Notes: generated by a model from the letters alone, not told the origin. A stretch of 64,000 nt of DNA from an uncultured Eubacteriales bacterium (GCA_964645765.1 CAZYBE010000011.1:7897-71896), one strand, 5' to 3'. Counted from the first letter of the stretch, positions 9,075 through 62,838 are shown. Numbers and translations: made by a program.

Positions 9075-10432
9075 GCTTTCTTAATTTTTCTTTTCCAATA
9101 AAAATAAGCGGGGACCCCTAAGAAAATAATGATCAGTCCTGCCATGGAGTTCCAGAATTCGTTGATTAAAGTGTTGAGGGAGATTAAAAAGGCTGAAAGG
9201 ACGAAGATGATGGGAAAGACAGGATATCCAAGGGTCTTATAAGGCCTGGGCAGGTCCGGCCTTTTTTTCCTCAAGATCATCACCGCTGCCCCGGCCAGAC
9301 CGAAGAAAATCCATTCTCCGAAGATGACGTAGGTGAAGAGCTGTTCGAATGTTCCGGAAAGGCTGAGGATAACAGCCCACAACCCGAGAAGGACAATGGA
9401 ATAATGAGGAGTTAGAAATCTGGGATGGACAGCAGAAATCCATTTGAAAAAAAGACCATCCTTGGCCATGGCAAAATAGACCCGGGGAGAAGTCAAAATA
9501 GTTTGATTGGCTGCTCCTGTAATTGAAAAGAGAATGATCAGGGCGATAATCGAAGCCCCAACAGGGCCAACAACAGTGTTCATAACATCAGCCGCAATCC
9601 TGTCGGAATTTGCGATGTGGCCAGCGGGAAAGACATAGAGATAGGCAAAATTAGCTATGAGGTAAATGGCAATCACGATAAGAGTCCCGATAAAAATCCC
9701 CCACGGCAAATTCCTCTCAGGACGTCTGGTCTCTCCGGCACTATATGTGGCTCCTTCCCATCCTTTATAAGCCCAGAGGGATGCGACCAAGGCTATTCCG
9801 AAACTTCCTATCAAGTTCATTGAAAAGGGCGGAGGCGAAGGCGAGTAGAAATGAGAAGCATTTCCCTTGGCAAAAACAAAGGCTATGCCACAAATGGCAA
9901 CGAGGCCACCAAATTTTATGATTGTCAAAGCATTCTGCAGATTAGCTCCACATCTGACTCCAACATAATTCACAATCACCAGAAAAGCTATAAAACATAA
10001 GGCTATAAGCTTTGTCTCAAGTTTTGAGAGATGAAAAAAATGGGGAAGATATTCGGATGAGAAGGCCACAGCCAGAGTCGCAACAGCTCCTGAATCAATG
10101 ACCAAAAAAAGCGTCCAGCCAAAAAGGAAGGCGATAAGCGAGCCGTAAGCCTCTCTCAAATAAACATAGATTCCGCCTGCCTGAGGGTAAGCGGCTCCCA
10201 TCTCAGAGAAGGAAACAGCGCCAAAAAAAGAAAGTACCCCTCCCACAATCCAAACAGCAAATATAAGGAGTGGAGAATGGACTCCAGCAGCTATGACTTT
10301 TGGAACAAGGAATATTCCAGAGCCGATGACTCCGCCGACTACAATTCCGATAATATCCCAGAGCCCAAGGACTCTTGGAAGAGAAAGCCGGGATTTATCC
10401 AAAGCGCTCTTTTCGAATGTCTCTTTTGCCAC
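9071..10432 (-). CDS. APC-family amino acid permease
   Basis: GGVIGSGIFLVP, EMGAAYPQAGGIYVYLREAYG, SPRVYFAMAKDGLFF, RPDLPRPYK; stop overlaps the convergent NSS stop. Confidence 0.9.
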   Translation of the reverse strand: MAKETFEKSALDKSRLSLPRVLGLWDIIGIVVGGVIGSGIFLVPKVIAAGVHSPLLIFAVWIVGGVLSFFGAVSFSEMGAAYPQAGGIYVYLREAYGSLIAFLFGWTLFLVIDSGAVATLAVAFSSEYLPHFFHLSKLETKLIALCFIAFLVIVNYVGVRCGANLQNALTIIKFGGLVAICGIAFVFAKGNASHFYSPSPPPFSMNLIGSFGIALVASLWAYKGWEGATYSAGETRRPERNLPWGIFIGTLIVIAIYLIANFAYLYVFPAGHIANSDRIAADVMNTVVGPVGASIIALIILFSITGAANQTILTSPRVYFAMAKDGLFFKWISAVHPRFLTPHYSIVLLGLWAVILSLSGTFEQLFTYVIFGEWIFFGLAGAAVMILRKKRPDLPRPYKTLGYPVFPIIFVLSAFLISLNTLINEFWNSMAGLIIIFLGVPAYFYWKRKIKKA

Positions 10433-10510
10433 GTGCGACAGCCTATATCAAAAAATGGAGATTATCAATCTCTTTTTCCCCTTTTCCCTCTTTTTAAATG
10501 CTTTTATATT

Positions 10511-10651
10511 GTCATTGCGAGCCCGAAGCGCCGTGGCAATCCGACGGAGTCGTCGCGAGGAGCGGAGCGACGCGGCGATCTCATAAGATTAAAGAGATTG
10601 CGCAGCCTGTTCCGAGCAAAGCGAGGAATCTTCTTCGTTCCTCGCAATGAC
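10511..10651. repeat. 141-bp palindromic REP/MITE-like element
   Basis: Terminal inverted repeat GTCATTGCGAG (10511) / CTCGCAATGAC (10641-10651); internal gcgatctc...gagattgc arms. Confidence 0.75.
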
Positions 10652-10673
10652 ATTTTATTTATTGCGTTTGTGT

Positions 10674-10834
10674 TAATAATCTAAAAAATTACAGCCTTCT
10701 CCTCAACTCTGCATTATCTTCATTATCTTGGAAAAAGCCCGGAGGTGGGGGTGGAGCGAACTGTTCTCCATCCAGAGCCCACATGCCGCGTCCGTGAGTG
10801 GCGATGACGATGATATTCTCGAGGGGATGAATGA
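10674..10834 (-). pseudogene. Duplicated 3' end of the Asp-box propeller gene (direct repeat copy A)
   Basis: High identity to 11826-11986 at constant offset 1152; encodes IHPLENIIVIATHGRGMWALDG...DNAELRRRL*. Confidence 0.9.
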
Positions 10835-10840
10835 AATCCG

Positions 10841-11485
10841 CTATGTTCTTTTCCTTCTCCTGGCAAATTCGAGAATCGCCACGATGACCGCAATACAAAG
10901 AAGGACAGCCAGTATTGTTATTAATCGATTCTTGCTGGAAATGGTTTTTTTCAGCTGTTCAGACAACGTGCTTTTTTCGCCATTCAGCGCAGAGATTTGC
11001 TGATTTTGATTCGCCACAGAATCCTTGAGCGCAGCCTGTGCTTTTTGAAGAGAGGAAATCTCAGCGTCTTTTGATGCAATTAATGTGCCCTTCTCGGCTA
11101 CTTCCTTTTTCAGGGCATTGATCTGGCTGTTGAAGCTGCTTATCCTTTTTCGGTTTTTTTCCTCAAATTCCTTGCCGGCTTTAACCGCTTTTTCAAGTTC
11201 TCCCTTTTGGCTTTCCAACGTTGCAATTTGATTTTCCAGTGTATTAATAGTAGCTGATAGCTGTTTATTTTCGCTTTGTGCATTCTCGAGGGCACTTTTT
11301 GTATCCATGAGTTCCTTGTTCAGTGCCTCGTTGTTTTTTTGAAACTCGCTGATTCTGCTGTCAGCCTGGTTGAGTTGGACTTTTTGTTCTTTGGTTGTTG
11401 CCATCTTGGATGCGCATCCCACCGTTAAAAGGATCGAAAGCGCTACGGCTGTGATCACCATGTCAAAATAAGGTTTTTTCCTCAT
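10841..11485 (-). CDS. Coiled-coil lipoprotein with a C-terminal TM helix
   Basis: SD aaggag before ATG 11485; lipobox LTVG-C; long heptad region; C-terminal hydrophobic helix followed by RRRKRT. Confidence 0.8.
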   Translation of the reverse strand: MRKKPYFDMVITAVALSILLTVGCASKMATTKEQKVQLNQADSRISEFQKNNEALNKELMDTKSALENAQSENKQLSATINTLENQIATLESQKGELEKAVKAGKEFEEKNRKRISSFNSQINALKKEVAEKGTLIASKDAEISSLQKAQAALKDSVANQNQQISALNGEKSTLSEQLKKTISSKNRLITILAVLLCIAVIVAILEFARRRKRT

Positions 11486-48727: not shown

Positions 48728-49756
48728 GTGAACAAGAAGCAAGTTTCCCTCCTGACTGAACGCCCGCAAGCCCGGAACCTCAATATCGAGGAAGCAAGAA
48801 ATTTGTTGGCAGAGGGCTGGGTAGCTGCCGACCTCCATGTTCATACACTTCATTCGTACGACGTCATCCCAACCCGGCTGGTGGATCCTTTGACGCTCTA
48901 CCGGAAAGCGCGGCGGCTCGGCATGACCTATATCACCTTTACCGATCACGACTCTATGGACGCTTATGACCAAATCGGATGGACTCGAGAAGGCCTTGTC
49001 CCAGCCGTCGAGGTCACGATCTTGGATCCCGATAAAGTGGGGCACACTGTCCATATCAATGTCTACGCTCTCGACCGCGGCCAATTTGGCGAAATCTTGA
49101 AAATCGCCCGTCTTGACCAGAACATCGAGCGGTTGGTTTCCTATTTGAAGGACGAGCATCTCCCCTACACATTCAATCATCCGTTCTGGCACGAACCACG
49201 GGAGAAGCCCAATCTTCGGGCCATCCTCGATATCGCCGACCTCTTCCCCGTTTTGGAATATAACATGGGACGGATCGCCCGAATTAATCGACAGGCGCTT
49301 AGGCTGGCCCAGGCGAGGAGGCGGGGCATCGTGGCGACGACGGATACCCACGTCGGCGAGATCGGCAGGGCTTTTACCATCGCCCGGGGCGACACATTCA
49401 TGGAATTTTTTGACCAAATTCGATTGGGGCAATCCTTCATTGTTCCAGCCGACCTGAACATCTCTCGCTTAAAGGGGGAAACGACAATCCGCATCCGCCA
49501 ACTTTTTAATAAATCCGGCTGGCTATATGCCAAAGACTGGTTCGCAATTAACACCGGGAGTGCGATCCTCGACGGAATCATCGCTCGGCTGGCACAGGCA
49601 CGCCCTGAGACACAGGGGCTCGCCAAAAAGATTCTCAAAATAATTCTAGAGGGCGCGTCCCGCTCAGGAATCCCCGGCTCTCTATATCTTCGATCCCAAC
49701 AAAACCTAGCGGACCAAATTCACGGACTCCTGGAAAGTATGGAGACCGTTACTTGA
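48728..49756 (+). CDS. PHP-domain metal-dependent phosphoesterase
   Basis: ADLHVHT..S, ITFTDHD, VPAVE, NHP, ATTDTH. Confidence 0.8.
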   Translation: MNKKQVSLLTERPQARNLNIEEARNLLAEGWVAADLHVHTLHSYDVIPTRLVDPLTLYRKARRLGMTYITFTDHDSMDAYDQIGWTREGLVPAVEVTILDPDKVGHTVHINVYALDRGQFGEILKIARLDQNIERLVSYLKDEHLPYTFNHPFWHEPREKPNLRAILDIADLFPVLEYNMGRIARINRQALRLAQARRRGIVATTDTHVGEIGRAFTIARGDTFMEFFDQIRLGQSFIVPADLNISRLKGETTIRIRQLFNKSGWLYAKDWFAINTGSAILDGIIARLAQARPETQGLAKKILKIILEGASRSGIPGSLYLRSQQNLADQIHGLLESMETVT

Positions 49757-49802
49757 CCCCATCTTTTTCTTGTCCAATGTAGTATAGTTAATAGAATAAA
49801 GC

Positions 49803-50546
49803 TTGTCATCAGCTAATAGATCGGAGGATCGAATAATTATAGCGATATTCGGCGACGTACACGGGAACATCGAAGCACTTCGAACAGCTTATCGAGCCGT
49901 GGAAATTAAGGCCGACAAGATATTTCATCTTGGCGACCTAGGGGGTTATGCTCCTTTTGTGAATGAAGTGGTAGACTTTTTGATTGAGCATAGCATAAAT
50001 GGAGTCCAGGGCAACTATGATGACGCTGTGGCCAACGATAGGGAACACTGTGGCTGTAAATATGAAGATCCCGTTCAAGAACAGATGACAGCTCTCTCGT
50101 TCGAATGGACGAAGAAGCACACAACGCAGAAGACGAAGGAGTACTTGAAGGGCCTCCCGCCGGTGCTTCATTTCTTTACTCAAGGCAAGAAGATCTTACT
50201 GTTTCATGCGGCACCGCATAAGAACAATCTTTACTGGTACGAAGGTCGCCCAGAGAAGTTTTTCACGGAGATGGCCGAGAAGACCGACTCCGATATCCTC
50301 GTCTACGGCCATACGCACAAGCCGTATCGAAAGGACTTTGGAGGGAGGGTCTTTATTAATGCCGGAAGCGTTGGGAAACCGAAGGACGGAGACCCGAGGG
50401 CATGCGTGGCTTTGATCGAGGTCACTCCCGATACGGTAAAGACAGATTTTGTAAGGATCGAGTACGAGGTCGAAAAAACCGTCGCGGCCATCTTGGAACA
50501 GGGTTTACCTGCATATTTCGCTGAAAAATTAAGACAAGGGAGATAG
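49803..50546 (+). CDS. Calcineurin-like metallophosphoesterase (YfcE-like); start uncertain
   Basis: GDVHGN, LGDLGGY, QGNYD, FH, GHTHKP, NAGSVGKPKDGDPRA. Confidence 0.85.
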   Translation: MSSANRSEDRIIIAIFGDVHGNIEALRTAYRAVEIKADKIFHLGDLGGYAPFVNEVVDFLIEHSINGVQGNYDDAVANDREHCGCKYEDPVQEQMTALSFEWTKKHTTQKTKEYLKGLPPVLHFFTQGKKILLFHAAPHKNNLYWYEGRPEKFFTEMAEKTDSDILVYGHTHKPYRKDFGGRVFINAGSVGKPKDGDPRACVALIEVTPDTVKTDFVRIEYEVEKTVAAILEQGLPAYFAEKLRQGR

Positions 50547-50602
50547 CCCTGAAAAATAAATACTGTCTTTACGTCGGGAATGATTCATGAGGGAAAGGTA
50601 CC

Positions 50603-51643
50603 ATGGCGGACGCTAAGCTGCATAAGACCGATGAGGCACTCAAAGCGGCGCAAAAGATATTGGCAGCCGAGGGAAAAGACCTGCGGGCCTCGCTTTACCG
50701 GGATATTTTTCTCAATGCGCTGAAGTGCCAACGGGATGAACTTGATATTTTGGACCTGAAGATCATCAACCGCGCCCTGGCCGAGTTCCGGCATGCCGCA
50801 TGCGTATTCAAACCGTACAGACCGCTCCGCAAGGTTTCCATCTTCGGTTCGGCTCGCGAACCCAAGGGAAGTCCCTACTACAAGCTGGCGGTAAGATTCG
50901 CTCGTCGTCTGGTCGAGAAAGGCTTTATGGTCATCACCGGAGCGGCATCAGGCATTATGAAAGCCGGGATCGAGGGAGCCGGACTTCGGAACAGCTTTGG
51001 AGTGAATATCCTCCTGCCCTTTGAGAGAGGGCTGGCTAAAATCATCCGAGACGATCCGAAAGTCGTCAGGTTTAAATACTTTTTCACGCGCAAAATATTT
51101 TTTGTGATGGAAGCCGATGCGGTCACCCTATTCCCCGGCGGCTTTGGCACGCACGATGAAGGATTTGAGGTGTTAACGTTGCTTCAAACTGGGAAAGCGC
51201 CGCCCATGCCCATTATCCTTATGGAACTTCCTGGAGAAGATTACTGGGAAACTTGGGATCGATTTATAAGACGGCAGTTACTGGCCCGGGGTTTCATATC
51301 TGCGGAGGACTTGAGTTTCTATAAAATTGCACGGTATCCTGAAGAAGCTATAGACTGGATCACCTCTTATTATTCAACGTATCACTCCCTGCGCCAGGTC
51401 AGAGACAAGCTTGTGATCAGGTTGGAAAAGGAACTCAAAGACGCTCATGTCAGAAGATTAAACGATATGTTCCAGGACCTCATTGAATCGGGGAAAATTT
51501 TCAAAACGCGGGCGCTTCCCGAAGAGAAAGACGAACCAAATCTCAGGTCAAAACCCAGGATTGCTTTCGCTTATAACCGAAAAAGCGCGGGGCGCCTTAA
51601 TAAAATGATTTTGACGATCAATAGAATGGGCCGCTTGGCATAA
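50603..51643 (+). CDS. LOG-family Rossmann-fold nucleotide-binding protein with extensions
   Basis: VSIFGSAR, ITGAASGIM, FFTRKIFF, FPGGFGTHDEGFEVLTL.QTGK. Confidence 0.85.
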   Translation: MADAKLHKTDEALKAAQKILAAEGKDLRASLYRDIFLNALKCQRDELDILDLKIINRALAEFRHAACVFKPYRPLRKVSIFGSAREPKGSPYYKLAVRFARRLVEKGFMVITGAASGIMKAGIEGAGLRNSFGVNILLPFERGLAKIIRDDPKVVRFKYFFTRKIFFVMEADAVTLFPGGFGTHDEGFEVLTLLQTGKAPPMPIILMELPGEDYWETWDRFIRRQLLARGFISAEDLSFYKIARYPEEAIDWITSYYSTYHSLRQVRDKLVIRLEKELKDAHVRRLNDMFQDLIESGKIFKTRALPEEKDEPNLRSKPRIAFAYNRKSAGRLNKMILTINRMGRLA

Positions 51644-51679: not shown

Positions 51680-53062
<1,383 letters not shown>

Positions 53063-53241
53063 TTATAGTATATTATGATTTATACGTATCCTTTCTTCAA
53101 ATATCTTAAAATTGTTATGGATTTATTTGGATTCAATTTGGATTTTAATAAAAAAATCCAACCGTTCCGTAGCCGGCGCTTGCTTGACTTTTATAAAAGC
53201 AAGGCTTATTTTTTATAAAGAAAATAAAAAGGATAAATATT

Positions 53242-54528
53242 ATGAACAAAGAATCCTTTAATCCCTTTGTCCTGGCTCAATTCCAATTCGACAGGACTGC
53301 GGATTGGCTCAGCCTGGACTTACCAACCAGAGAGCTGTTGCGTGTTCCGATGAAAGAATATCAATTCCTCATTCCCCTTCGCTTGGATGACGGGAGTGTC
53401 AAGGTCTTCCGCGGCTTCCGCGTGGTCCATAACGATGCCCGAGGAGCCGGCAAGGGAGGTATTCGTTTCCATCCTCATCAGACCATTGACACCATCCGCG
53501 CCCTGGCAATGTGGATGACCTGGAAATGCGCCCTGATGGACCTTCCCTTGGGTGGCAGCAGCGGAGGGGTAGCCTGTGATCCTCACTACTTAAGCCTTCG
53601 AGAGCAGGAGCATCTCTGCCGGGGCTGGGTTAGGCAGCTGGCCAGGGACCTTGGTCCGCAGGTCGATGTTCCCGCGCCTGAGCTCATGACCAGCGCGCAG
53701 CACATGCTCTGGATGCTGGACGAGTACGAGGCTCTCCGCGGGGAGAAAACCCCGGGATTTATTACCGGCAAGCCTGTAGGGATGGGAGGATCTCTCGGCA
53801 GAGTGGAAGCTGCGGGTTTTGGCCTCGTCTTTTCCCTGCGCGAGGCCCTGAAAGAAATGAAGATGAAGCCGGACGGCACGACTGCCAGTGTCCAGGGGTT
53901 CGGCAATGTGGCTCAGCATGCTGTCCGACTCTTCGAACAGGTTGGCGGCAAAGTGACCTGCGTTTCTTGCTGGGATCAGAAAGACGCAACGCCCTATGCT
54001 TATAAAAAAGAATCCGGCATCGAGCTCGAAGCCCTGGCTGGCATCACGGACCGCTTCGGCGGGATCGATAAAGAGAGTGCCCGGAAGATGGGGTATGAAG
54101 TCCTTCCCGGAGAGGCCTGGCTCGCTCAGGATGTGGACATCTTGATTCCGGCGGCTGTCGAGAATCAAATCACAGATAAGAATGTGCAAACAATCCGCCC
54201 GCGCGTCAGAATCATCGCCGAGGGAGCCAACGGCCCCACCACCTTCGAAGCCGACAGAGTCATCGCTGAGCGGGGTATCCTCGTCATTCCTGATATTCTC
54301 GCCAACGCCGGTGGTGTGACCTGCAGCTATTTCGAGCAGGTCCAGAGCAACATGAACTATTATTGGGAGAAAGACGAGGTTCTCGGCAAGCTGGATGTCA
54401 AAATAACCTCTGCCTTCAACGCTGTCCTCGAATTCGCCAAAAAAAAGAAGCTTTCCATGCGGGAGGCGGCTTTTTCTATCGCCGTGGCCCGGGTGGCCCA
54501 AGCCTGCAAGGACCGAGGTTGGGTTTAA
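53242..54528 (+). CDS. Glu/Leu/Phe/Val dehydrogenase homolog with altered catalytic residues
   Basis: GKGGIRFHP, MTWKCA, QGFGNVA and NAGGV present, but GGSSGG replaces GGxKGG and PAPE replaces PAPD/PAGD. Confidence 0.9.
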   Translation: MNKESFNPFVLAQFQFDRTADWLSLDLPTRELLRVPMKEYQFLIPLRLDDGSVKVFRGFRVVHNDARGAGKGGIRFHPHQTIDTIRALAMWMTWKCALMDLPLGGSSGGVACDPHYLSLREQEHLCRGWVRQLARDLGPQVDVPAPELMTSAQHMLWMLDEYEALRGEKTPGFITGKPVGMGGSLGRVEAAGFGLVFSLREALKEMKMKPDGTTASVQGFGNVAQHAVRLFEQVGGKVTCVSCWDQKDATPYAYKKESGIELEALAGITDRFGGIDKESARKMGYEVLPGEAWLAQDVDILIPAAVENQITDKNVQTIRPRVRIIAEGANGPTTFEADRVIAERGILVIPDILANAGGVTCSYFEQVQSNMNYYWEKDEVLGKLDVKITSAFNAVLEFAKKKKLSMREAAFSIAVARVAQACKDRGWV

Positions 54529-54530
54529 GT

Positions 54531-56270
54531 TTGCATTATCAACAGTCCATCTCGCCCTTCGACCGCCATTTCTTTACGGGGAAAGAAAAGTTCACGGCTA
54601 TCGGTCGCGGTTCCTTGGGGGGAAAAGCCCATGGCCTGGCCCTGATGAAGGACATTCTCGAAAGCCGCCTGGCAGCATCCTACCGGCCTGATATCGACAT
54701 CACCACACCGACCCTGACAGTCATCACCACAGAATTCTTCGACCTTTTCATGAAGCAAAACAACCTCTACGACGTGGCTTTATCCGGCCTCCGCGATGAC
54801 CTCATCGCCACTGCTTTTCAGAAGGCCGAGCTTCCTGCCCAGCTCGTTGGCGACCTGCGCGCCCTTATCGCCCAGGTTCACTCGCCGCTGGCCATCCGGT
54901 CCTCCAGCATGCTCGAGGACGCCATGTTCGAGCCGTTCGCCAGCGTCTATTCCACAAAAATGATCCCAAACAACGAGCTGGATACTGACACCCGCTTCAG
55001 GAAGCTGGTGGAGGCGGTCAAGTTTGTCTACGCTTCGACTTTCTTGAGGGACGCGAAAAACTACATTCAAGCGACAAAGCACAAGATGATAGACGAAAAG
55101 ATGGCAGTCATCATCCAAGAAATCGTCGGCGTGCGGCACGGCCAGCGCTTCTATCCTCATATCTCGGGTGTAGCCCGTTCCTATAATTTTTATCCGCTCG
55201 GCCATACCAAGCCCGCCGACGGAGTGATCGATCTTGCTCTCGGCTTGGGCAAAATGATCGTGGATGACGGCGTCGCCTGGTCTTATTCGCCGGCCTATCC
55301 CAAGGCAAATCCGCCCTATAACACGCTTGCCGAACTCTTAGGCCAGAGCCAGAACGAATTCTGGGCTGTCAACATGGGGCCTCCTCCCGAGTTCAATCCC
55401 CTCAAAGAAACCGAATATATGGCGAAGTTCAGCCTGGAGGATGCCGAGATGGATGGAATCCTCCGCTTCATCGCCTCCACCTACAGGGCTCAGGACGACA
55501 AAATCGTCTACGGAATCTCGGAGAAGGGGCCGAGGATTATCGATTTCGCGTCAATCCTGAAATTCGACCTCATTCCACTCAACAAGATGCTTAAAGAACT
55601 GCTTAAAATCTGCGAGGACACACTGGAGAGAATGGTTGAGGTTGAATTTGCCTTGACTCTCGATGAACACCGTGGCGCTCCTGCCCGTTTTGGATTTCTG
55701 CAGGTCAGACCGATGGTTGTATCAGAGACAAAAGTCGACCTCTCTTTGGCGGAGCTGAGCGGAGAGAAGGTGCTCGTGGCTTCCGATTCGGCCCTGGGAA
55801 ATGGAGTCCTCGAAAATATCCGCGACATCGTTTATGCCAAGCCGGAGAAATTCAGCATTCATCATTCGGAGGCCATCGCCTCAGAGCTCGAACACTTGAA
55901 CTGTCAGCTGGTGGCTTCAAGCAGCCCTTACCTGCTCGTCGGGTTCGGCCGCTGGGGGACATCCGACCCACAGGCCGGAATTCCTGTCAATTTCGGCCAG
56001 ATCTGCGGAGCCAAAGTCATCGTCGAGTCAGCACTTCCTGAGATGAGCTCGATGCTCAGCCAGGGTTCGCATTTTTTCCACAATATCACCAGCTTCAAAG
56101 TCTTCTATTTCTCAGTAAGCTCATGGGATAAATACAAAATCGATTGGGACTGGTTGAACAAGCAGGAAGTCGTCCAGGAAACAGAATTCGTCCGACAGGT
56201 CAGGGTTCTGTCTCCCTTGAAAATAAAAGTCGACGGGAGAACCAGTCGGGGGGTGATCTATCATGAGTAA
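54531..56270 (+). CDS. PEP-synthase-N-like ATP-grasp protein 1, no His domain; start revised to TTG 54531
   Basis: GGKAHGL, AIRSSSMLED, MAVIIQEIVG, VEFA, LQVRP; ends GSHFFHNI; no TSHAAI phospho-His motif. Confidence 0.85.
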   Translation: MHYQQSISPFDRHFFTGKEKFTAIGRGSLGGKAHGLALMKDILESRLAASYRPDIDITTPTLTVITTEFFDLFMKQNNLYDVALSGLRDDLIATAFQKAELPAQLVGDLRALIAQVHSPLAIRSSSMLEDAMFEPFASVYSTKMIPNNELDTDTRFRKLVEAVKFVYASTFLRDAKNYIQATKHKMIDEKMAVIIQEIVGVRHGQRFYPHISGVARSYNFYPLGHTKPADGVIDLALGLGKMIVDDGVAWSYSPAYPKANPPYNTLAELLGQSQNEFWAVNMGPPPEFNPLKETEYMAKFSLEDAEMDGILRFIASTYRAQDDKIVYGISEKGPRIIDFASILKFDLIPLNKMLKELLKICEDTLERMVEVEFALTLDEHRGAPARFGFLQVRPMVVSETKVDLSLAELSGEKVLVASDSALGNGVLENIRDIVYAKPEKFSIHHSEAIASELEHLNCQLVASSSPYLLVGFGRWGTSDPQAGIPVNFGQICGAKVIVESALPEMSSMLSQGSHFFHNITSFKVFYFSVSSWDKYKIDWDWLNKQEVVQETEFVRQVRVLSPLKIKVDGRTSRGVIYHE

Positions 56271-59200
56271 AGAGCAAAAAAATATAGATACTTTAGTCTG
56301 GTTCCTGTCCGAACGGGCCAAGGAACTGAATTGCCTCTACAAAATCGAAGGGCTCCTCAACAAACCTGATGCCAGCCTTACGGATATCTGCAAAGGGGTC
56401 GTCGAGGCTATTCCGCCGGGCTGGCAGTATCCAGATGTCTGCGTCGCCAAAATCACCATAGAGGGGCACACCTGCCAATCCCCAAACTTCAAAGAGACGC
56501 CCTGGGTCCAGTTTGCCGACATCAAAGTCCAGGATAAGAAAATCGGGAGGTTGAGCGTTTACTACACAAGCGAGATGCCCCATGCCGACGACGGTCCCTT
56601 TTTGAAAGAGGAAACAAAACTTCTGGGCACGATCGTCGAGCGGTTAGGGCATTACATCCTCTACTCCCGGATGAAACAAGCATTCCAAGAATACCAGACT
56701 GCCCGGGAAGAAATCTCGGCCCACCGGACAGAAGAATGGCGCGTGGCTTTGAATTTCTTGCGTCAGACCAACAAGAACCTTTTTCTGAATATCTCCCGCC
56801 AAATGCTCAATTTCCTCAGTTGGAGCGGCGTTCAGGAAGCAGAGAAAATCCTCCTAAAATCTTTAGCCGGCCAAAAAAGCCGCCCCGAGAGTTATTCTGA
56901 AGACGACAATCGTCCCTATCGAATGACCCTGCCCGCCTTCAGCGAAAAACTCAGCGATGAAACGTTCAAGCTGGCGGCCAAGCATCTCACCAACGAGCAA
57001 ATTCTCTCCAACATCCAGAAGTGGATTCAGGAGGACCGGCTGAGCTTTCTGGTCCAGGTGACAAACAGGAATCTCTCCCTTGCTCAGGTTGTTGACGCTA
57101 TCCGGCGCTATCATCATATTGCGGCGGAAGGCATCGAACTCCCTCCTGCCAGCAAGCGGGGCGTCCTGGTCTCCCTGATCCGGCGCTTCCTCTCGGACCA
57201 GCCGGAATTCATAAACACGGCTATCGAGCACACTGAGGTCGATAACTTTTACGAAATTCTGGATCATATCGTTTTTCCGGCTGCAAGCCAGGGAAAACTC
57301 GGCGGGAAAAGCAGCGGGTTATTCCTTGCCAAGCATATCCTGAAGAAATCGGCCGATTCCCTGAGCCACTTTAGCGAGATCAAGGTTCCCAAGACGTGGT
57401 ACATCACCTCGGATGGACTCTTGAGCTTTCTCTCCTACAACAACCTCAACGAGGCTGTCGAACAAAAATACAAGGACATCAACCAGGTCCGGCTGGAATA
57501 TCCCCACATCGTCCACACCTTCAAAAATTCCCGCTTCTCCACGGACATCATCCAGGGTCTGTCTATGGTCCTGGATGACTTCAAGGATCAGCCGATCATC
57601 GTCCGCAGCTCCAGCCTGCTCGAAGACCGGCCAGGCTCATCATTTTCAGGAAAATACAAGAGTCTGTTCCTGGCCAACCAAGGAAGCAAGCAGGAGCGCC
57701 TGGATGCCCTCAAGGATGCCATCGCTGAAGTCTATGCCTCGACCTACGGACCCGACCCGATCGGCTACCGCTCGGAGAGGGGCTTGCTTGACCTTAACGA
57801 GGAAATGGGCATCATGATTCAAGAAGTCGTAGGCACGCGGGTCGGAGACTATTTTCTGCCTTCGTTTGCAGGTGTCGCCTTCAGCCGGAACGACTCTCGC
57901 TGGTCCCCAAGGATCAAGCGTGAAGATGGCCTGCTGCGGCTGGTCCCAGGATTGGGAACGAGAGCTGTGGATAGGACGAGCGACGACTATCCTGTTTTGA
58001 TCGCTCCAGGACAGGTCGGCCTCCGGGTTAATGTCACGGCCGACGAGGTTGTCCGTTATGCACCTAAGAAGGTTGATGTCATCAACTTAAAAACGAATAG
58101 CTTCGAGACTATAAGAGTCACAGACTTGTTCAAGACCTCCGGCAGTGGAATTCCTGCCATAGATAAAATCGTCTCCATCTATGACGGTCAAAGTCTTCGG
58201 AAGCCTTTGGGAAATGCTATCGATTTCGAGAAGGATGACCTCGTGGTCACCTTTGAAGGGTTGATAAACAATTCGTCCTTCATTCCTCAGCTCCGCCAGG
58301 TGATGCGGCTCCTGGAAGAAAGGCTCAATTCGCCGGTGGACATCGAATTCGCATCCGATGGGAAAAATTTTTATCTCCTCCAATGCCGGCCTCAAAGCTA
58401 CATGGAGGGAGGCGGGCCTGCCTTTATCCCCAAGGACTTATCCAAGGACAAAGTCCTATTCCTGGCCAACCGTTTCATCTCCAACGGCAGCGTGCCCGAT
58501 GTCAGCTATATCGTCTATGTCGACCCTCAAAGCTACAATGACCTGCCCAGCCAGACGTCTCTTCTGGCTGTAGGACGCGCAGTGGGAAGGCTGAACAAGC
58601 TCTTGCCCAGGCGCCGCTTCATTCTCATCGGGCCAGGACGCTGGGGAAGCCGGGGAGACATCAAGCTTGGGGTGAAAGTCTCCTACTCGGACATTTCGAA
58701 CACAGCTGCACTGGTAGAAATTGCCCGGCAATTGGGAAATTATCTTCCAGATCTTTCCTTCGGCACGCACTTCTTCCAGGACCTTGTGGAAGCAGAGATC
58801 CGTTATCTGCCTCTTTATCCCGACGAAAAGGGCACTGTTTTCCAGGAGAACTTTTTCAGGGAGTCACCGAATATCCTTGCTCATGTCCTGCCTGATTTTG
58901 CCGACCTTGCGGATACGGTCAAAGTGATTGATGTTCCTGCGACGACTGGAGGATTAGTGCTCCGCATCCTGATGAATGCCGACCTCGATGAAGCCGTCGG
59001 CATCCTGGTCAACCCCCAAGCCGAACCTCCCTCTCCAGTTGTCCCGAAAGAAGCGGAGAAGAAGAAGCCAGAAAACTATTGGGCCTGGCGGCTCGAAATG
59101 GCAGAACACATCGCTTCCCAGCTTGACCCTCAGCGCTTTGGAGTCAAAGCTATGTACATTATCGGCAGCACCAAGAATGCCACAGCCGGGCCGCAGAGCG

Positions 59201-59457
59201 ACATCGACCTCTTAATTCATTTTCAAGGGACAAAAAACCAGCGCCGGGAGTTGCTGATTTGGCTGGAAGGCTGGAGTATTTGCCTGGACGAGCTGAATTT
59301 CCAGAGGATAGGGTACAAAAGCGGGGGGCTGCTCGATGTCCACATTGTCACCGACGAGGATGTCGCCAACAAGGCAGGCTATGCGATAAAAATAGGCGCC
59401 GCCACAGATGCCGCAAGGCCTCTCCGCCTCAAAGAAAAAACCGGCGACTCAAGCTGA
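56263..59457 (+). CDS. GAF-like + PEP-synthase-N-like ATP-grasp + nucleotidyltransferase fusion
   Basis: N-terminal ERAKELNCLY...GPFLKEE; GGKSSG, VRSSSLLED, DIEFA, LLQCRP; C-terminal YIIGST...SDIDLL...LDVH. Confidence 0.85.
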   Translation: MSKEQKNIDTLVWFLSERAKELNCLYKIEGLLNKPDASLTDICKGVVEAIPPGWQYPDVCVAKITIEGHTCQSPNFKETPWVQFADIKVQDKKIGRLSVYYTSEMPHADDGPFLKEETKLLGTIVERLGHYILYSRMKQAFQEYQTAREEISAHRTEEWRVALNFLRQTNKNLFLNISRQMLNFLSWSGVQEAEKILLKSLAGQKSRPESYSEDDNRPYRMTLPAFSEKLSDETFKLAAKHLTNEQILSNIQKWIQEDRLSFLVQVTNRNLSLAQVVDAIRRYHHIAAEGIELPPASKRGVLVSLIRRFLSDQPEFINTAIEHTEVDNFYEILDHIVFPAASQGKLGGKSSGLFLAKHILKKSADSLSHFSEIKVPKTWYITSDGLLSFLSYNNLNEAVEQKYKDINQVRLEYPHIVHTFKNSRFSTDIIQGLSMVLDDFKDQPIIVRSSSLLEDRPGSSFSGKYKSLFLANQGSKQERLDALKDAIAEVYASTYGPDPIGYRSERGLLDLNEEMGIMIQEVVGTRVGDYFLPSFAGVAFSRNDSRWSPRIKREDGLLRLVPGLGTRAVDRTSDDYPVLIAPGQVGLRVNVTADEVVRYAPKKVDVINLKTNSFETIRVTDLFKTSGSGIPAIDKIVSIYDGQSLRKPLGNAIDFEKDDLVVTFEGLINNSSFIPQLRQVMRLLEERLNSPVDIEFASDGKNFYLLQCRPQSYMEGGGPAFIPKDLSKDKVLFLANRFISNGSVPDVSYIVYVDPQSYNDLPSQTSLLAVGRAVGRLNKLLPRRRFILIGPGRWGSRGDIKLGVKVSYSDISNTAALVEIARQLGNYLPDLSFGTHFFQDLVEAEIRYLPLYPDEKGTVFQENFFRESPNILAHVLPDFADLADTVKVIDVPATTGGLVLRILMNADLDEAVGILVNPQAEPPSPVVPKEAEKKKPENYWAWRLEMAEHIASQLDPQRFGVKAMYIIGSTKNATAGPQSDIDLLIHFQGTKNQRRELLIWLEGWSICLDELNFQRIGYKSGGLLDVHIVTDEDVANKAGYAIKIGAATDAARPLRLKEKTGDSS

Positions 59458-59465
59458 GCGCGCTC

Positions 59466-60329
59466 TCAAATCAGCTCGCGGCTGGCCGCGTCCAAATTTT
59501 CAAGGTCAAAGCGAATCAGAGCGAGCTCCGGACCGTCGTGAGCAGCGGAAAAACATATTGTGCGGCCGATGCGGTCTCGCCAGGAATGAGACAGCCTTGC
59601 CGACTCATGGACATGCCCATGAAACGTTAAGAGCGGCTGGCGGGCTTCGATGAAGCGCCGGACAGCTATGCTGCCGAGGTGACGGTCCAAAGGGACGTAA
59701 TCAATCATTTTTCCTCCAAGAGAGGATAGGTCAAGCTTCGTCTGGTAGGGAGGTGTATGGAAGAGAAAGATCGCCTTGGCCAGGTCTTCTTTCTCCGTCA
59801 GCCGCTCGAGGTCATCCTTAATCGTCGCATATTTTTTTTCCTGCTCAGAAACGGAAACAGTTCGAAACCCCTCTTCCGGTGAGACGGCGCCGGCGTCGAG
59901 ATAGCGGGAGACATCGTAGCGCTCCCAATCTTTCAGCCGAAAAGGAGTTGGAGGGACATAGGCATACCCATAAACAATAAAGTCCTTGAATGTCACCTTA
60001 CAATTATGAATATACTCCCATACGCCCAGTGAAGCCGCATCCAGAACTGCTGCCTCTTCCATCCGGCTGTCGTCGTTGCCCAAGATTATAAAAACCCTGG
60101 GATAGGAGCTTCCAAGCTCCTGGCGCAGCTCTAGAAGATTTTTCACCAAGAAATCGTTGATAAAATCCTGGTGCAAGAAATCAAAGGATTCGTGGACGTA
60201 CCAGGTCAGGGGCAAGGCATCGCCGCCGACAAACACGGCCTCGGGCTTTTCTCGAGAGATGGCGGAAAAAAGCTTCTGGTAACGGGCGATTCTGCCGTGG
60301 AGGTCAGAGACAAAAAAAATCAAGGACAT
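59466..60329 (-). CDS. Metallophosphoesterase (Icc-like)
   Basis: VSDLHG, VGGD, ILGNDD, FHTPP, HGHVHES; ATG at 60329. Confidence 0.85.
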   Translation of the reverse strand: MSLIFFVSDLHGRIARYQKLFSAISREKPEAVFVGGDALPLTWYVHESFDFLHQDFINDFLVKNLLELRQELGSSYPRVFIILGNDDSRMEEAAVLDAASLGVWEYIHNCKVTFKDFIVYGYAYVPPTPFRLKDWERYDVSRYLDAGAVSPEEGFRTVSVSEQEKKYATIKDDLERLTEKEDLAKAIFLFHTPPYQTKLDLSSLGGKMIDYVPLDRHLGSIAVRRFIEARQPLLTFHGHVHESARLSHSWRDRIGRTICFSAAHDGPELALIRFDLENLDAASRELI

Positions 60330-60406
60330 AAGGAAATCATAGCGAAAAAAATCCAAGGAGACAACTTTGGCGGATTCATCTGAGGCGAGACCTTGGCCGG
60401 AGGAAG

Positions 60407-61138
60407 TTATGTATTTTCCTCGGCATTGAATTTATAGCCAACTCCTCTTACAGTCTGGATGTATCTCCTGGCCTTCCCGAGCTTTTTCCGGAGTCCGGTA
60501 ATATGGTAGTCGACGACGCGCTCGGTGATCGGGTAGCCGTCCTCTCGCACGTGGTCGAGGATTCGGGAGCGGGTAAAGACATAATTGGGTTTGCTCGCCA
60601 TCAAGACAAGGATATCGAATTCCGTTTTGGAGAGGCCGATCTTTCTGCCGCTGAGTAGGACCTCGTAGGCTTCCCGATTGATCACCAAATCGTCGATTTC
60701 CAGAATTGTCTTTTCTTTTTCGGCTGAATCAAATTTCCTGCGCAACTGGGCGTGGATGCGGGCCAGGAGGATTTCCGGCTCAAAGGGCTTGGTAATGTAA
60801 TCGTCGGCGTAGTCTTTAAGGCCGAGCACAATATCTTCAACCTGCTTTTTGGCTGTCACTATGATGACCAGGATGTCAGCGGTCGAGGGGTCCTTCTTGA
60901 GGATACTCGAAACCTTATAGCCGTCTATTCCCGGCAGGATCAGGTCCAACAGAATAAGGTCCGGCCTCTCTCTCCTTGCCAGTTCTAATGCCTCTTCTCC
61001 TGTCTGGGCGCAAAGAACTTGATATCCCTCTTTCCAAAGGATAAAAGAGAGGCTTTTCTGAAGGTTGATATCATCCTCAACGCACAAAATCTTGGCTTTG
61101 GGTCGAGTGTCTCCGGGTGATGATTTCATGCTGCACAC
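60407..61138 (-). CDS. Orphan OmpR/PhoB-family response regulator
   Basis: VEDD, LILLDLILPGIDG, ADDYITKPF, ERVVDYHITGLRKKLG, TVRGVGYKF. Confidence 0.9.
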   Translation of the reverse strand: MCSMKSSPGDTRPKAKILCVEDDINLQKSLSFILWKEGYQVLCAQTGEEALELARRERPDLILLDLILPGIDGYKVSSILKKDPSTADILVIIVTAKKQVEDIVLGLKDYADDYITKPFEPEILLARIHAQLRRKFDSAEKEKTILEIDDLVINREAYEVLLSGRKIGLSKTEFDILVLMASKPNYVFTRSRILDHVREDGYPITERVVDYHITGLRKKLGKARRYIQTVRGVGYKFNAEENT

Positions 61139-61392: not shown

Positions 61393-62838
61393 TCATCTCT
61401 TCGACTCTCTTTGTTCGTAAGCCTCGATCCATTTTTCGACGATTTGAGCCAGAGTCTGGCACAGCTGAGGTCCGCTGCCGTGGATAGGACGCAACTCTTC
61501 GGCAAGCTCTGGATAGCCTTTGCAGTCCAGCCAGGACGAGACGATATCATTGTCGGAGTACGGCTGAATTTTCTCGGTGCTCAGGGTCTGAAGAGTGGCG
61601 TAGAGATCATGCAGGTTGAATATTTTCTCTCCATTGATAATCAAAGGCGTCCTCTCCATTCGAGCGATTTCGACCTGAAAATGCCTCTTCAACTGAGTAA
61701 TGAGTTTCTGGCCCCGGCCCCTTTTGGGACGCAATCGATCGCCGAGCTCCGGGTAGCTGTGCATGTAGAGCCAGGTCGAGAACTTATCTTTCTCCCCATA
61801 GCTCTCCAGTATCTCCCGAAGCTTCAGTCCATGCTCGGTGTCCTTCTCGGCTTCCAAGAGGATGTTGCAAATGTCGTAGATATCTTTAGCGCGGTGCATT
61901 TCACGTCCATCCTTATCATGGATGAGAAAATCTCCCAGCCCTGTAAGGTTGAGAATATAATCCTTGAGCTTCTGCAGACTGTCTTGGTCGCCTTTGGGCA
62001 GGATGAAACCAAGGTCCTTGAGTTCAAAAGCTTCTTTTGCTTTGGAAGCAATGATCACAGGGATACGAGGATAATAAATGTTGACAAGGCGGATGAGGTC
62101 ACGGCCTGCCCTGCTCTGAAGGTCATCGCCTCTGGGAAAAAAGATATCGGCGATGAGACAGACAACATCGTCTCCGTGCCCCTGCGAGAGATAGTCCTTT
62201 TTTCTGACCTGAGACTCATCTTCAACCCCAAAGAGGAACTCGAGACTCTCCTCATAAGTGCGGGTAATCATGATGTCCGCCCGCTGACCGATGATCGTGT
62301 AGAGGACTGGGAGGAATTGAGAGAACCAGCGCGGCTCGTCATCGACCACATGGAAAATAAACCGCCGCACTCTTGAATATTTCTTGATATTGAGCAAATC
62401 TTCCGCCGCCCTGACGACCGATGGAATAATGCTCCTGGGAGCAAATTCATTCTTGTTGACCGCAAAGACAAGGTCGGCATTGGCTGTGTAGGGATACTTT
62501 TGTCTTGCAGCCTGAGGAGGCGAGCATTGAATGAAGGCTTGAGAGGAAAGAAGGACAAGGACCGCGTTACTGTTCTGCTTGCGGACTTTTCCGGCGTCAA
62601 GAATCGCCAACCCCGTGTCATCGAACAGGAATACAGAGGCCTCATCGGACGCGGCCATCATCACCGACTGAGGGTCAGAGAGAATTTCTGTCCCCAGCCA
62701 AGGCATGTTCTCTTCCAAGAGTTCTGCGGACTCCCGGAGCCGGGCGTCGGCGGCAAAAAGGACCGCCCGTTTTATCTTGACGGGGTTGATGACTCGGGGA
62801 ATGAACGGATATTCTCGAGGACGGCTTGAGCTAGTCAT
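61393..62838 (-). CDS. Stand-alone protein with tandem receiver-like domains and two helical repeats
   Basis: FHVVDDEP, RTYEES, CLIADIFFP...AG.DL, IPVIIAS; repeats FSTWLYMHSYPELGDRLRP and VSSWLDCKGYPELAEELRP. Confidence 0.7.
   Translation of the reverse strand: MTSSSRPREYPFIPRVINPVKIKRAVLFAADARLRESAELLEENMPWLGTEILSDPQSVMMAASDEASVFLFDDTGLAILDAGKVRKQNSNAVLVLLSSQAFIQCSPPQAARQKYPYTANADLVFAVNKNEFAPRSIIPSVVRAAEDLLNIKKYSRVRRFIFHVVDDEPRWFSQFLPVLYTIIGQRADIMITRTYEESLEFLFGVEDESQVRKKDYLSQGHGDDVVCLIADIFFPRGDDLQSRAGRDLIRLVNIYYPRIPVIIASKAKEAFELKDLGFILPKGDQDSLQKLKDYILNLTGLGDFLIHDKDGREMHRAKDIYDICNILLEAEKDTEHGLKLREILESYGEKDKFSTWLYMHSYPELGDRLRPKRGRGQKLITQLKRHFQVEIARMERTPLIINGEKIFNLHDLYATLQTLSTEKIQPYSDNDIVSSWLDCKGYPELAEELRPIHGSGPQLCQTLAQIVEKWIEAYEQRESKR

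Follow-up and report, generated by a model that had tools for sequence, protein, structure and literature searches.

A glutamate dehydrogenase paralogue lacking the catalytic lysine is retained beside PPDK_N ATP-grasp genes in an uncultured Eubacteriales bacterium

The 64,000-nucleotide stretch of an uncultured Eubacteriales bacterium analysed here (GCA_964645765.1, CAZYBE010000011.1:7897-71896; hereafter the window) carries, at 53242..54528 on the plus strand, a gene for a 428-residue glutamate dehydrogenase (GDH) homologue, GDH2, in which serine occupies the place of the catalytic lysine. GDH2 is a full-length GDH of the small hexameric type, matching Pfam PF02812 ELFV_dehydrog_N (E 5e-47) and PF00208 ELFV_dehydrog (E 4e-67), and its closest matches in the Protein Data Bank (PDB) are the hexameric GDHs of Pyrococcus and Thermococcus (E ~1e-110 over residues 7-428). 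In the alignment with 1gtm, 1euz and 1bvu, Ser107 in LPLGGSSGG (codon AGC, 53560..53562, plus strand) faces the Lys of GGGKGG, and Glu147 in VPAPE (codon GAG, 53680..53682, plus strand) faces the Asp of PAPD in the PDB GDHs, the position of the catalytic, amino-group-binding Asp. We take positions 107 and 147 to correspond to K125 and D165 of the Clostridium symbiosum enzyme. The Lys of GGxKGG is accepted as essential in ELFV dehydrogenases, and GDH2 thus lacks the general base of a competent GDH. The ligand pocket and the nucleotide-binding fold are intact, with K71 (GKGG), K95 (TWK), R187, N330, S362 and the Rossmann motif GFGNVA all kept; the substrate-carboxylate ligands among these presumably are the equivalents of C. 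symbiosum K89, K113, R205 and S380. The AGC codon and the retained lysines and Rossmann motif had been pointed out in a first-pass annotation of the window, and the codon and PDB alignments bear both observations out. GDH2 scores 423 bits against an NCBIfam GDH equivalog cutoff of 750.

The loss of Lys is genuine, is shared across the clade and stands under purifying selection. Two base changes separate either Lys codon (AAA or AAG) from AGC, which had been taken to make a sequencing error unlikely, and a 92%-identical orthologue (P0002, locus L166) agrees; because this orthologue and dozens of other homologues also lack the Lys, Ser107 is not a sequencing artefact. The substitution is not strain-specific decay either, an outcome that the first-pass annotation had set beforehand as counting against its proposal: about 97 Lys-less (K-less) relatives exist, with ratios of nonsynonymous to synonymous substitution (dN/dS) of 0.04-0.10. 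The GDH2 ratio is 0.097 against the L166 orthologue and 0.04-0.07 against five more distant K-less orthologues, values similar to those of the neighbouring genes PPDK1, PPDK2 and the phosphoesterase gene described below; that of the adjoining canonical GDH gene, gdhA, is 0.025-0.05. Nor is the clade accelerated, its p-distance to ordinary GDHs being 0.564 as compared with 0.551 for the catalytic relatives. The functional gdhA next door might suggest that GDH2 is a decaying redundant duplicate, a pseudogene in progress, or else that its substitution arose in sequencing or assembly. With the open reading frame intact in ~97 sequences, the same residue state in many independent assemblies, the pocket conserved and dN/dS this low, we reject this explanation as effectively refuted, its probability being negligible.

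The residue patterns of the relatives were counted in 116 full-length sequences among the closest 120 database homologues of GDH2 (72-100% identical), whose sources, where named, are Aminicenantes, Acidobacteriota or Zixibacteria. Position 107 is S in 53, K in 27, H in 20, N in 10, T in 3 and Y in 3 of them, within an invariant frame of P102, L103, G104, G105, G108 and G109, and K71, K95, R187, N330, S362 and G219-F-G-N222 are conserved at 97-100%. Across the K-less clade, the substrate-carboxylate ligands, the Asn of EGANGPT and the Rossmann GxGxxG/A motif are likewise at least 97% conserved. Among the ~97 K-less relatives, mostly labelled Aminicenantes or Acidobacteriota, position 107 is S, H, N, T, Y or F. 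In the 116 homologues, K107 goes with D147 in 27 of 27 cases and E147 occurs only in sequences without K; H and T pair with E, N does so in most cases, and S is found with D in 43 sequences and with E in 10. Position 147 is D or E in 97 of 97 K-less sequences, E in 42 of them, so that the D147E change is secondary, conservative and not clade-wide. Glu147 itself is as the first-pass annotation reported; its statement that GDH2 lacks the catalytic Asp was too strong, because the change is conservative and the carboxylate is kept in all K-less relatives.

The 97 K-less sequences were also compared with 166 K-bearing relatives, all of which have Lys107. Ninety-one of the 112 positions that are at least 98% invariant in the K-bearing set stay at least 95% conserved in the K-less set, and near-complete switches are confined to K107, Q62 (53425-53427, plus strand; 95% conserved in catalytic relatives, V/L/I in the K-less clade) and Y411 (54472-54474, plus strand; 98% conserved, F in the K-less clade), with D147 split between D and E. 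Both Q62 and Y411 may once have been hydrogen-bonded to the lost Lys. We also considered a migrated lysine and rejected it, since the 97 K-less sequences show no newly conserved Lys, His or Arg that could take the place of K107.

These patterns bear on whether GDH2 is still an enzyme, transferring hydride without Lys and releasing 2-iminoglutarate for spontaneous hydrolysis, using another substrate, or turning over at a low but sufficient rate. The kept binding residues, Rossmann fold and carboxylate at 147, the unaccelerated rate and a dN/dS as low as that of the neighbouring genes are all compatible with such activity. However, the essential Lys is present in every K-bearing relative, no basic residue compensates for it, two polar residues invariant in catalytic relatives (Q62 and Y411) turn hydrophobic, and the replacement varies freely (S/H/N/T/Y/F/E), which argues that the residue at 107 has no defined catalytic role; we consider continued catalysis quite unlikely. 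The codons at position 107 (S, AGC; N, AAC; T, ACC; Y, TAT; H, CAT) each lie one step from Asn AAY, itself one mutational step from Lys AAR, and the residue spectrum resembles drift by way of Asn at a site that may have lost its importance.

A few K-less members are more degenerate: L114 (GDH at 286-1569) carries K71M, K107F and R187H, L084 (GDH at 10001-11284) K107T and S362D, and L090 (GDH at 232-1515) K107N and N330H. From this pattern, substrate binding also appears to be under loss in some K-less lineages. Elsewhere in the family, some 10 of the 150 best-matching 50%-identity representatives have M, H, V, F, R, Q or C in place of the Lys. These small GDHs of other lineages (P0129 M, P0154 H, P0162 V, P0205 F, P0206 M, P0241 R, P0243 Q, P0244 M, P0247 C) have in some cases lost further pocket residues, and it seems that GDH paralogues without the Lys arise repeatedly and have received little study.

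Downstream, GDH2 is followed on the same strand by two genes for PPDK_N ATP-grasp proteins. The GDH2 stop codon (54526-54528) is separated by a 2-nt gap from PPDK1 (54531..56270, plus strand; 579 residues), whose TTG at 54531 was taken as the start because the product then fits the 578-585 residues of its homologues, and PPDK1 overlaps PPDK2 (56263..59457, plus strand; 1064 residues) by 8 nt. No convincing terminator was seen within the three genes, which are predicted to form one translationally coupled operon, in agreement with the co-transcription proposed by the first-pass annotation. A gene for a calcineurin-like metallophosphoesterase (59466..60356, minus strand) converges on the operon and is a conserved fourth member of the module.

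PPDK1 consists of a PPDK_N ATP-grasp domain and a C-terminal domain without a Pfam family (GRWGT...GSHFF). PPDK2 has a GAF-like N-terminus, a PPDK_N ATP-grasp domain, a domain that also has no Pfam family (GRWGS...GTHFF) and a C-terminal nucleotidyltransferase of the MNT/Pol-beta type. The two unassigned domains are homologous (BLASTP E 6e-14), with invariant GRWG[ST] and G[ST]HFF motifs and an invariant His. Both proteins hit PF01326 alone, with scores far under the NCBIfam equivalog cutoffs; the phospho-His swivel domain PF00391 and PF02896 gave no match in their C-terminal parts even at E<=5, and no other Pfam family was found in the unassigned parts. We therefore rejected PPDK1 and PPDK2 as dikinases using phosphoenolpyruvate (PEP) (PEPS, PPDK or rifampin phosphotransferase), as they have neither the swivel domain nor the PEP-binding barrel. 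In PPDK2, the ATP-grasp motifs are present and the GS...DxD motif of the nucleotidyltransferase is invariant. AlphaFold2 models of these partners were poor (mean predicted local distance difference test score 57 for PPDK2 from 24 sequences and 52 for PPDK1 from 22), and the Foldseek matches of PPDK2 are domain-level hints only: GAF-like (probability 1.0 to NifA/Nlh GAF domains, on a low-confidence model), rifampin-phosphotransferase-like ATP-grasp and MNT-like nucleotidyltransferase. Foldseek on the PPDK1 model returned nothing meaningful. The domain make-up of PPDK2 points to a sensory or regulatory enzyme. A defence role for the module was considered and rejected, a PADLOC scan having given just generic nucleotidyltransferase and phosphoesterase motif matches.

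The same make-up invites the view that GDH2 is the target, or a decoy, of a covalent-modification cycle in which PPDK2 would write a phosphoryl or nucleotidyl mark, perhaps on the hydroxyl or imidazole at position 107, and the metallophosphoesterase would erase it. PPDK2 has the motifs for such chemistry and a C-terminus resembling the AMPylating MntA, the phosphoesterase is a conserved partner, and 84 of the 97 K-less sequences have S, T, Y or H at position 107. Yet N (11), F, E and M are also found there, and the spectrum can be purely mutational because the S, T, H and Y codons are single steps from the Asn codons that neighbour Lys. We regard this explanation as very unlikely.

Further genes flank the module. 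Downstream of the phosphoesterase on the minus strand lie genes for an OmpR-family response regulator (60407-61138), a 481-residue protein without a Pfam match (61393-62838) and a third, divergent PPDK_N-like paralogue (62831->64000) that runs off the end of the window and whose full-length L001 orthologue shows the motifs GSLGGKG, IRSS, PGRLGSR and GSHF. The trio is also present in L001, L004 and L005, and at least its first two genes in L166. No histidine kinase gene was seen beside these three genes, and the conserved His of the PPDK_N-like proteins could point to an atypical phosphorelay. Upstream, at 48728-51643 on the plus strand, are genes for a weakly PHP-like protein, a Metallophos_2 phosphoesterase and a LOG/'lysine decarboxylase'-family (SLOG) protein, whose linkage to the module is not conserved in other loci.

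Scans of one genome per species and of metagenome contigs found GDHs of this family at 47-84% identity in at least 160 loci, the locus counts being samples and not a census. Among the matches listed, most loci at 59% identity or above, 99 of the 114 with enough flank, have PPDK2 beside the GDH, often PPDK1 and frequently the phosphoesterase. The module thus consists of a GDH, an optional 580-residue PPDK_N protein, a ~1060-residue protein with PPDK_N and nucleotidyltransferase domains and, usually, a convergent metallophosphoesterase, and it occurs in two layouts, with and without PPDK1. It is present in more than 15 bacterial and archaeal phyla, with labels including Acidobacteriota, Zixibacteria, Ignavibacteriota, Planctomycetota, Calditrichota, Fibrobacterota, Lentisphaerota, Cloacimonadota, Bacteroidota, Bacillota, Myxococcota and the archaeal Thermoplasmatota (for example L064, L067 and L070). 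A search of the literature for PPDK_N with GDH, or Aminicenantes with GDH, found no paper describing the GDH/PPDK_N module. Nearly all GDHs of the labelled operon loci carry K107 and D147, as does that of the cultured Oligosphaera ethanolica DSM 24202 (Lentisphaerota; L056). The co-occurrence of the Lys-to-Ser change with the ATP-grasp neighbours, raised in the first-pass annotation, does not hold, most operon members across many phyla keeping both catalytic residues. The operon is conserved among S, H, T, N, Y and K members alike, and the PPDK genes are kept in 11 of the 11 K-less loci with enough downstream flank among the matches listed.

In a neighbour-joining tree of 269 sequences, with positions 106, 107, 147 and 151 masked, the root state is K and the K-less clade is nested within the K-bearing operon GDHs. 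The tree contains one large K-less clade of 87 sequences (S/H/N/T) and a mixed sister group of Y, F and N with two K; separate Lys losses lie in L062 (E107) and L084 (T107), and column 107 changes state at least 14 times. Lys appears from this tree to have been lost at least three times independently, all within the operon-linked GDH family. Because the K-less clade sits inside a large operon-linked family of K- and D-bearing GDHs, the operon is older than the Lys loss. A K-bearing close relative, P0079 (locus L167, 2522-2653), has PPDK1 reduced to a 44-residue C-terminal remnant, PPDK2 shortened to about 916-942 residues and no adjacent gdhA; this locus may be evidence of ongoing remodelling of the module.

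Instead of the ATP-grasp genes, an adjacent canonical gdhA accompanies the Lys loss. In the window, gdhA (51680..53041, minus strand) is divergent from GDH2 and encodes a 453-residue NADP-type enzyme with GGGKGG and PAGD that scores 751 bits against an NCBIfam NADP-GDH equivalog cutoff of 536; it is catalytically intact by these features, as the first-pass annotation held. GDH2 and gdhA products are ~33% identical and belong to different GDH subfamilies. Among the matches listed, 9 of the 10 K-less loci with adequate flank have the 453-residue gdhA inside the sampled stretch (8 of them in immediately divergent position, and L062 at a distance of 6 kb), as compared with 12 of 61 K-bearing PPDK-linked loci. 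L084, which is under the identity cut-off of the gdhA count, was read apart, and the test therefore used 9 of 9 K-less loci; the resulting Fisher p of ~5e-6 overstates the association, because the K-less loci stem from about three independent events and the K-bearing L006, L109 and L113 counter it.

The spacer between gdhA and GDH2, 200-390 bp in the K-less clade, contains a conserved block at 53112..53159 with three GGATT direct repeats 10-11 bp apart and an inverted AATCC (TTGTTATGGATTTATTTGGATTCAATTTGGATTTTAATAAAAAAATCC). The block is kept in nine K-less-clade loci although the flanking spacer diverges, and is absent from L006, L109 and L113, which share the gene layout. It is a candidate regulator-binding site common to gdhA and GDH2, and resembles the target of a regulator that binds direct repeats, for instance the OmpR-type response regulator encoded nearby. 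A promoter-like TTGACT-17-TATTTT element (53184..53212, plus strand) lies 30 nt upstream of the GDH2 ATG, in a surrounding block that is conserved in the orthologous loci.

To our knowledge, Thermus is essentially the only organism from which non-catalytic GDH subunits have been described. In Thermus thermophilus, GdhA is the catalytically inactive regulatory subunit of a GdhA/GdhB heterohexamer (PDB 3AOE; Tomita et al. 2010/2011, cited in PMC9570180). It resembles GDH2 in being a retained, small hexameric-type GDH homologue encoded beside a catalytic GDH. The adjacent catalytic GDH of GDH2 is of another subfamily and no close paralogue, and GDH2 is co-transcribed with the PPDK_N proteins and not with the catalytic GDH. 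GDH2 matches the Thermus chain 3aoe_E (E 3.5e-61) far more weakly than the catalytic chain 3aoe_A (E 1.8e-99) or the archaeal GDHs named above, and its clade is nested in K-bearing operon GDHs; the weaker match to 3aoe_E argues that the loss in GDH2 was independent, and GDH2 shows no orthology or close kinship to Thermus GdhA. The Thermus precedent invoked by the first-pass annotation is thus genuine (PMC9570180), while a heterohexamer of close paralogues fits poorly here because gdhA belongs to a different subfamily.

A Thermus-type role would nevertheless have GDH2 form mixed oligomers with the gdhA product, or dock on it, and modulate its activity, perhaps relaying input from PPDK1, PPDK2 and the phosphoesterase. 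It would draw on the Thermus precedent (PMC9570180 and bioRxiv 10.1101/2025.10.31.685773), on the immediately divergent gdhA in most K-less loci and on their conserved common control region, and would explain the continued selection on PPDK1 and PPDK2 after the loss of GDH2 catalysis. A mixed hexamer of two subfamilies is doubtful, however, L084 has no gdhA within 10 kb, a purely structural subunit has no obvious need for the retained substrate-pocket residues, and the match to 3aoe_E is far weaker than that to catalytic GDHs. We consider this role unlikely.

Two further systems, and the relatives of GDH2 itself, help to place it. The K- and D-bearing GDHs of the same operon (such as those of L002, L006 and L056) are orthologues of GDH2 with 59-74% identity and the same gene arrangement around them. 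They differ from it in keeping the catalytic Lys and Asp and are presumably active. RocG of Bacillus subtilis is a 'trigger enzyme', a GDH that controls the regulator GltC, so that another protein reads its ligand-dependent state, and whose catalytic and regulatory functions are separable; it is fully catalytic, its partner is a LysR-type transcription factor, and it has no PPDK_N operon. In ADLP, the alanine-dehydrogenase-like pseudoenzyme of T. thermophilus, Ser, Gly, Asp or Thr stands in for the catalytic Lys throughout the clade; the protein still binds NAD(H) and, as an NAD sensor, regulates the CoA transferase to which it binds (bioRxiv 10.1101/2025.10.31.685773). Like the GDH2 clade, ADLP is an amino-acid dehydrogenase homologue with varied small or polar residues in place of the Lys clade-wide, and GDH2 shares the features of such a pseudo-dehydrogenase sensor, namely clade-wide Lys replacement under purifying selection with the nucleotide-binding motif kept. 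Unlike GDH2, ADLP has the alanine dehydrogenase and not the ELFV fold, its partner is a CoA transferase and not a PPDK_N protein, and its function is demonstrated, whereas that of GDH2 is only inferred. GDH2 is orthologous to neither Thermus GdhA nor ADLP and emerged independently within a different operon family.

Taken together, our observations suggest that GDH2 is a catalytically disabled, or nearly disabled, ligand-binding GDH paralogue kept for a non-catalytic partner role in the module, a reading that we hold to be as probable as its negation. The ancestral GDH could have been (i) a regulated target of the PPDK_N proteins, (ii) a supplier of metabolites or (iii) a ligand-sensing or scaffolding partner. 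Role (ii) is disfavoured because metabolite supply gives no reason for purifying selection on GDH2 after catalysis is lost, and role (i) because the regulators would then have no reason to stay, unless GDH2 acts on the gdhA product. Role (iii) is favoured because it accounts for the conserved pocket and fold, the drifting position 107, the retained operon and the dispensability of catalysis once gdhA is present. In the ancestral module, the GDH would have acted as a trigger enzyme, both catalysing and reporting glutamate, 2-oxoglutarate or NAD(P)H status to the PPDK_N proteins, or scaffolding them. In an Aminicenantes-type lineage, a canonical NADP-GDH may then have come to lie beside the operon, behind the common conserved control region; gdhA would have made GDH2 catalysis redundant, and Lys could have been lost while the ligand-binding or partner function was left, a case of subfunctionalisation. 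The proposal of the first-pass annotation that GDH2 is a sensor feeding the ATP-grasp proteins survives as the best available inference, drawn from synteny and conservation only.

Several points weigh against this partner role. The interaction of GDH2 with the PPDK_N proteins is suggested by synteny alone, no Rosetta-stone fusion of GDH and PPDK_N was found among long GDH-containing proteins, and the partner models are of the poor quality given above. The gdhA link goes back to about three independent loss events; L084 lost its Lys with no gdhA in reach, and the Lys persists in L006, L109 and L113 despite the same divergent gdhA. In addition, an intact pocket, a carboxylate at 147 and an unaccelerated rate are also expected of a still-active enzyme.

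GDH stands where carbon metabolism meets that of nitrogen, and the present clade adds to Thermus a second, independent group of strongly selected Lys-less GDHs that is much larger; most of its members appear to belong to uncultured bacteria of sediments and the subsurface (Aminicenantes). The automatic annotation of such genes as 'glutamate dehydrogenase', and the metabolic reconstructions of these metagenome-assembled genomes, over-count active GDHs. The K-less variants amount to a natural 'separation-of-function' experiment, in which the GDH fulfils its role in the module without GDH chemistry, and provide a handle on the function of two large families of 'PEP/pyruvate-binding domain' hypothetical proteins. 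As a tentative possibility, the whole module of GDH, PPDK_N protein, PPDK_N-nucleotidyltransferase protein and metallophosphoesterase may be an undescribed system for carbon/nitrogen-status signalling or protein modification, with the GDH hexamer as its sensing, or modified, component; GDH catalysis would be dispensable for its output, hence the repeated loss of Lys with the pocket kept. The most valuable by-product of this analysis is the recognition of that widespread GDH/PPDK_N/nucleotidyltransferase/phosphoesterase module, in which GDH chemistry is evidently dispensable.

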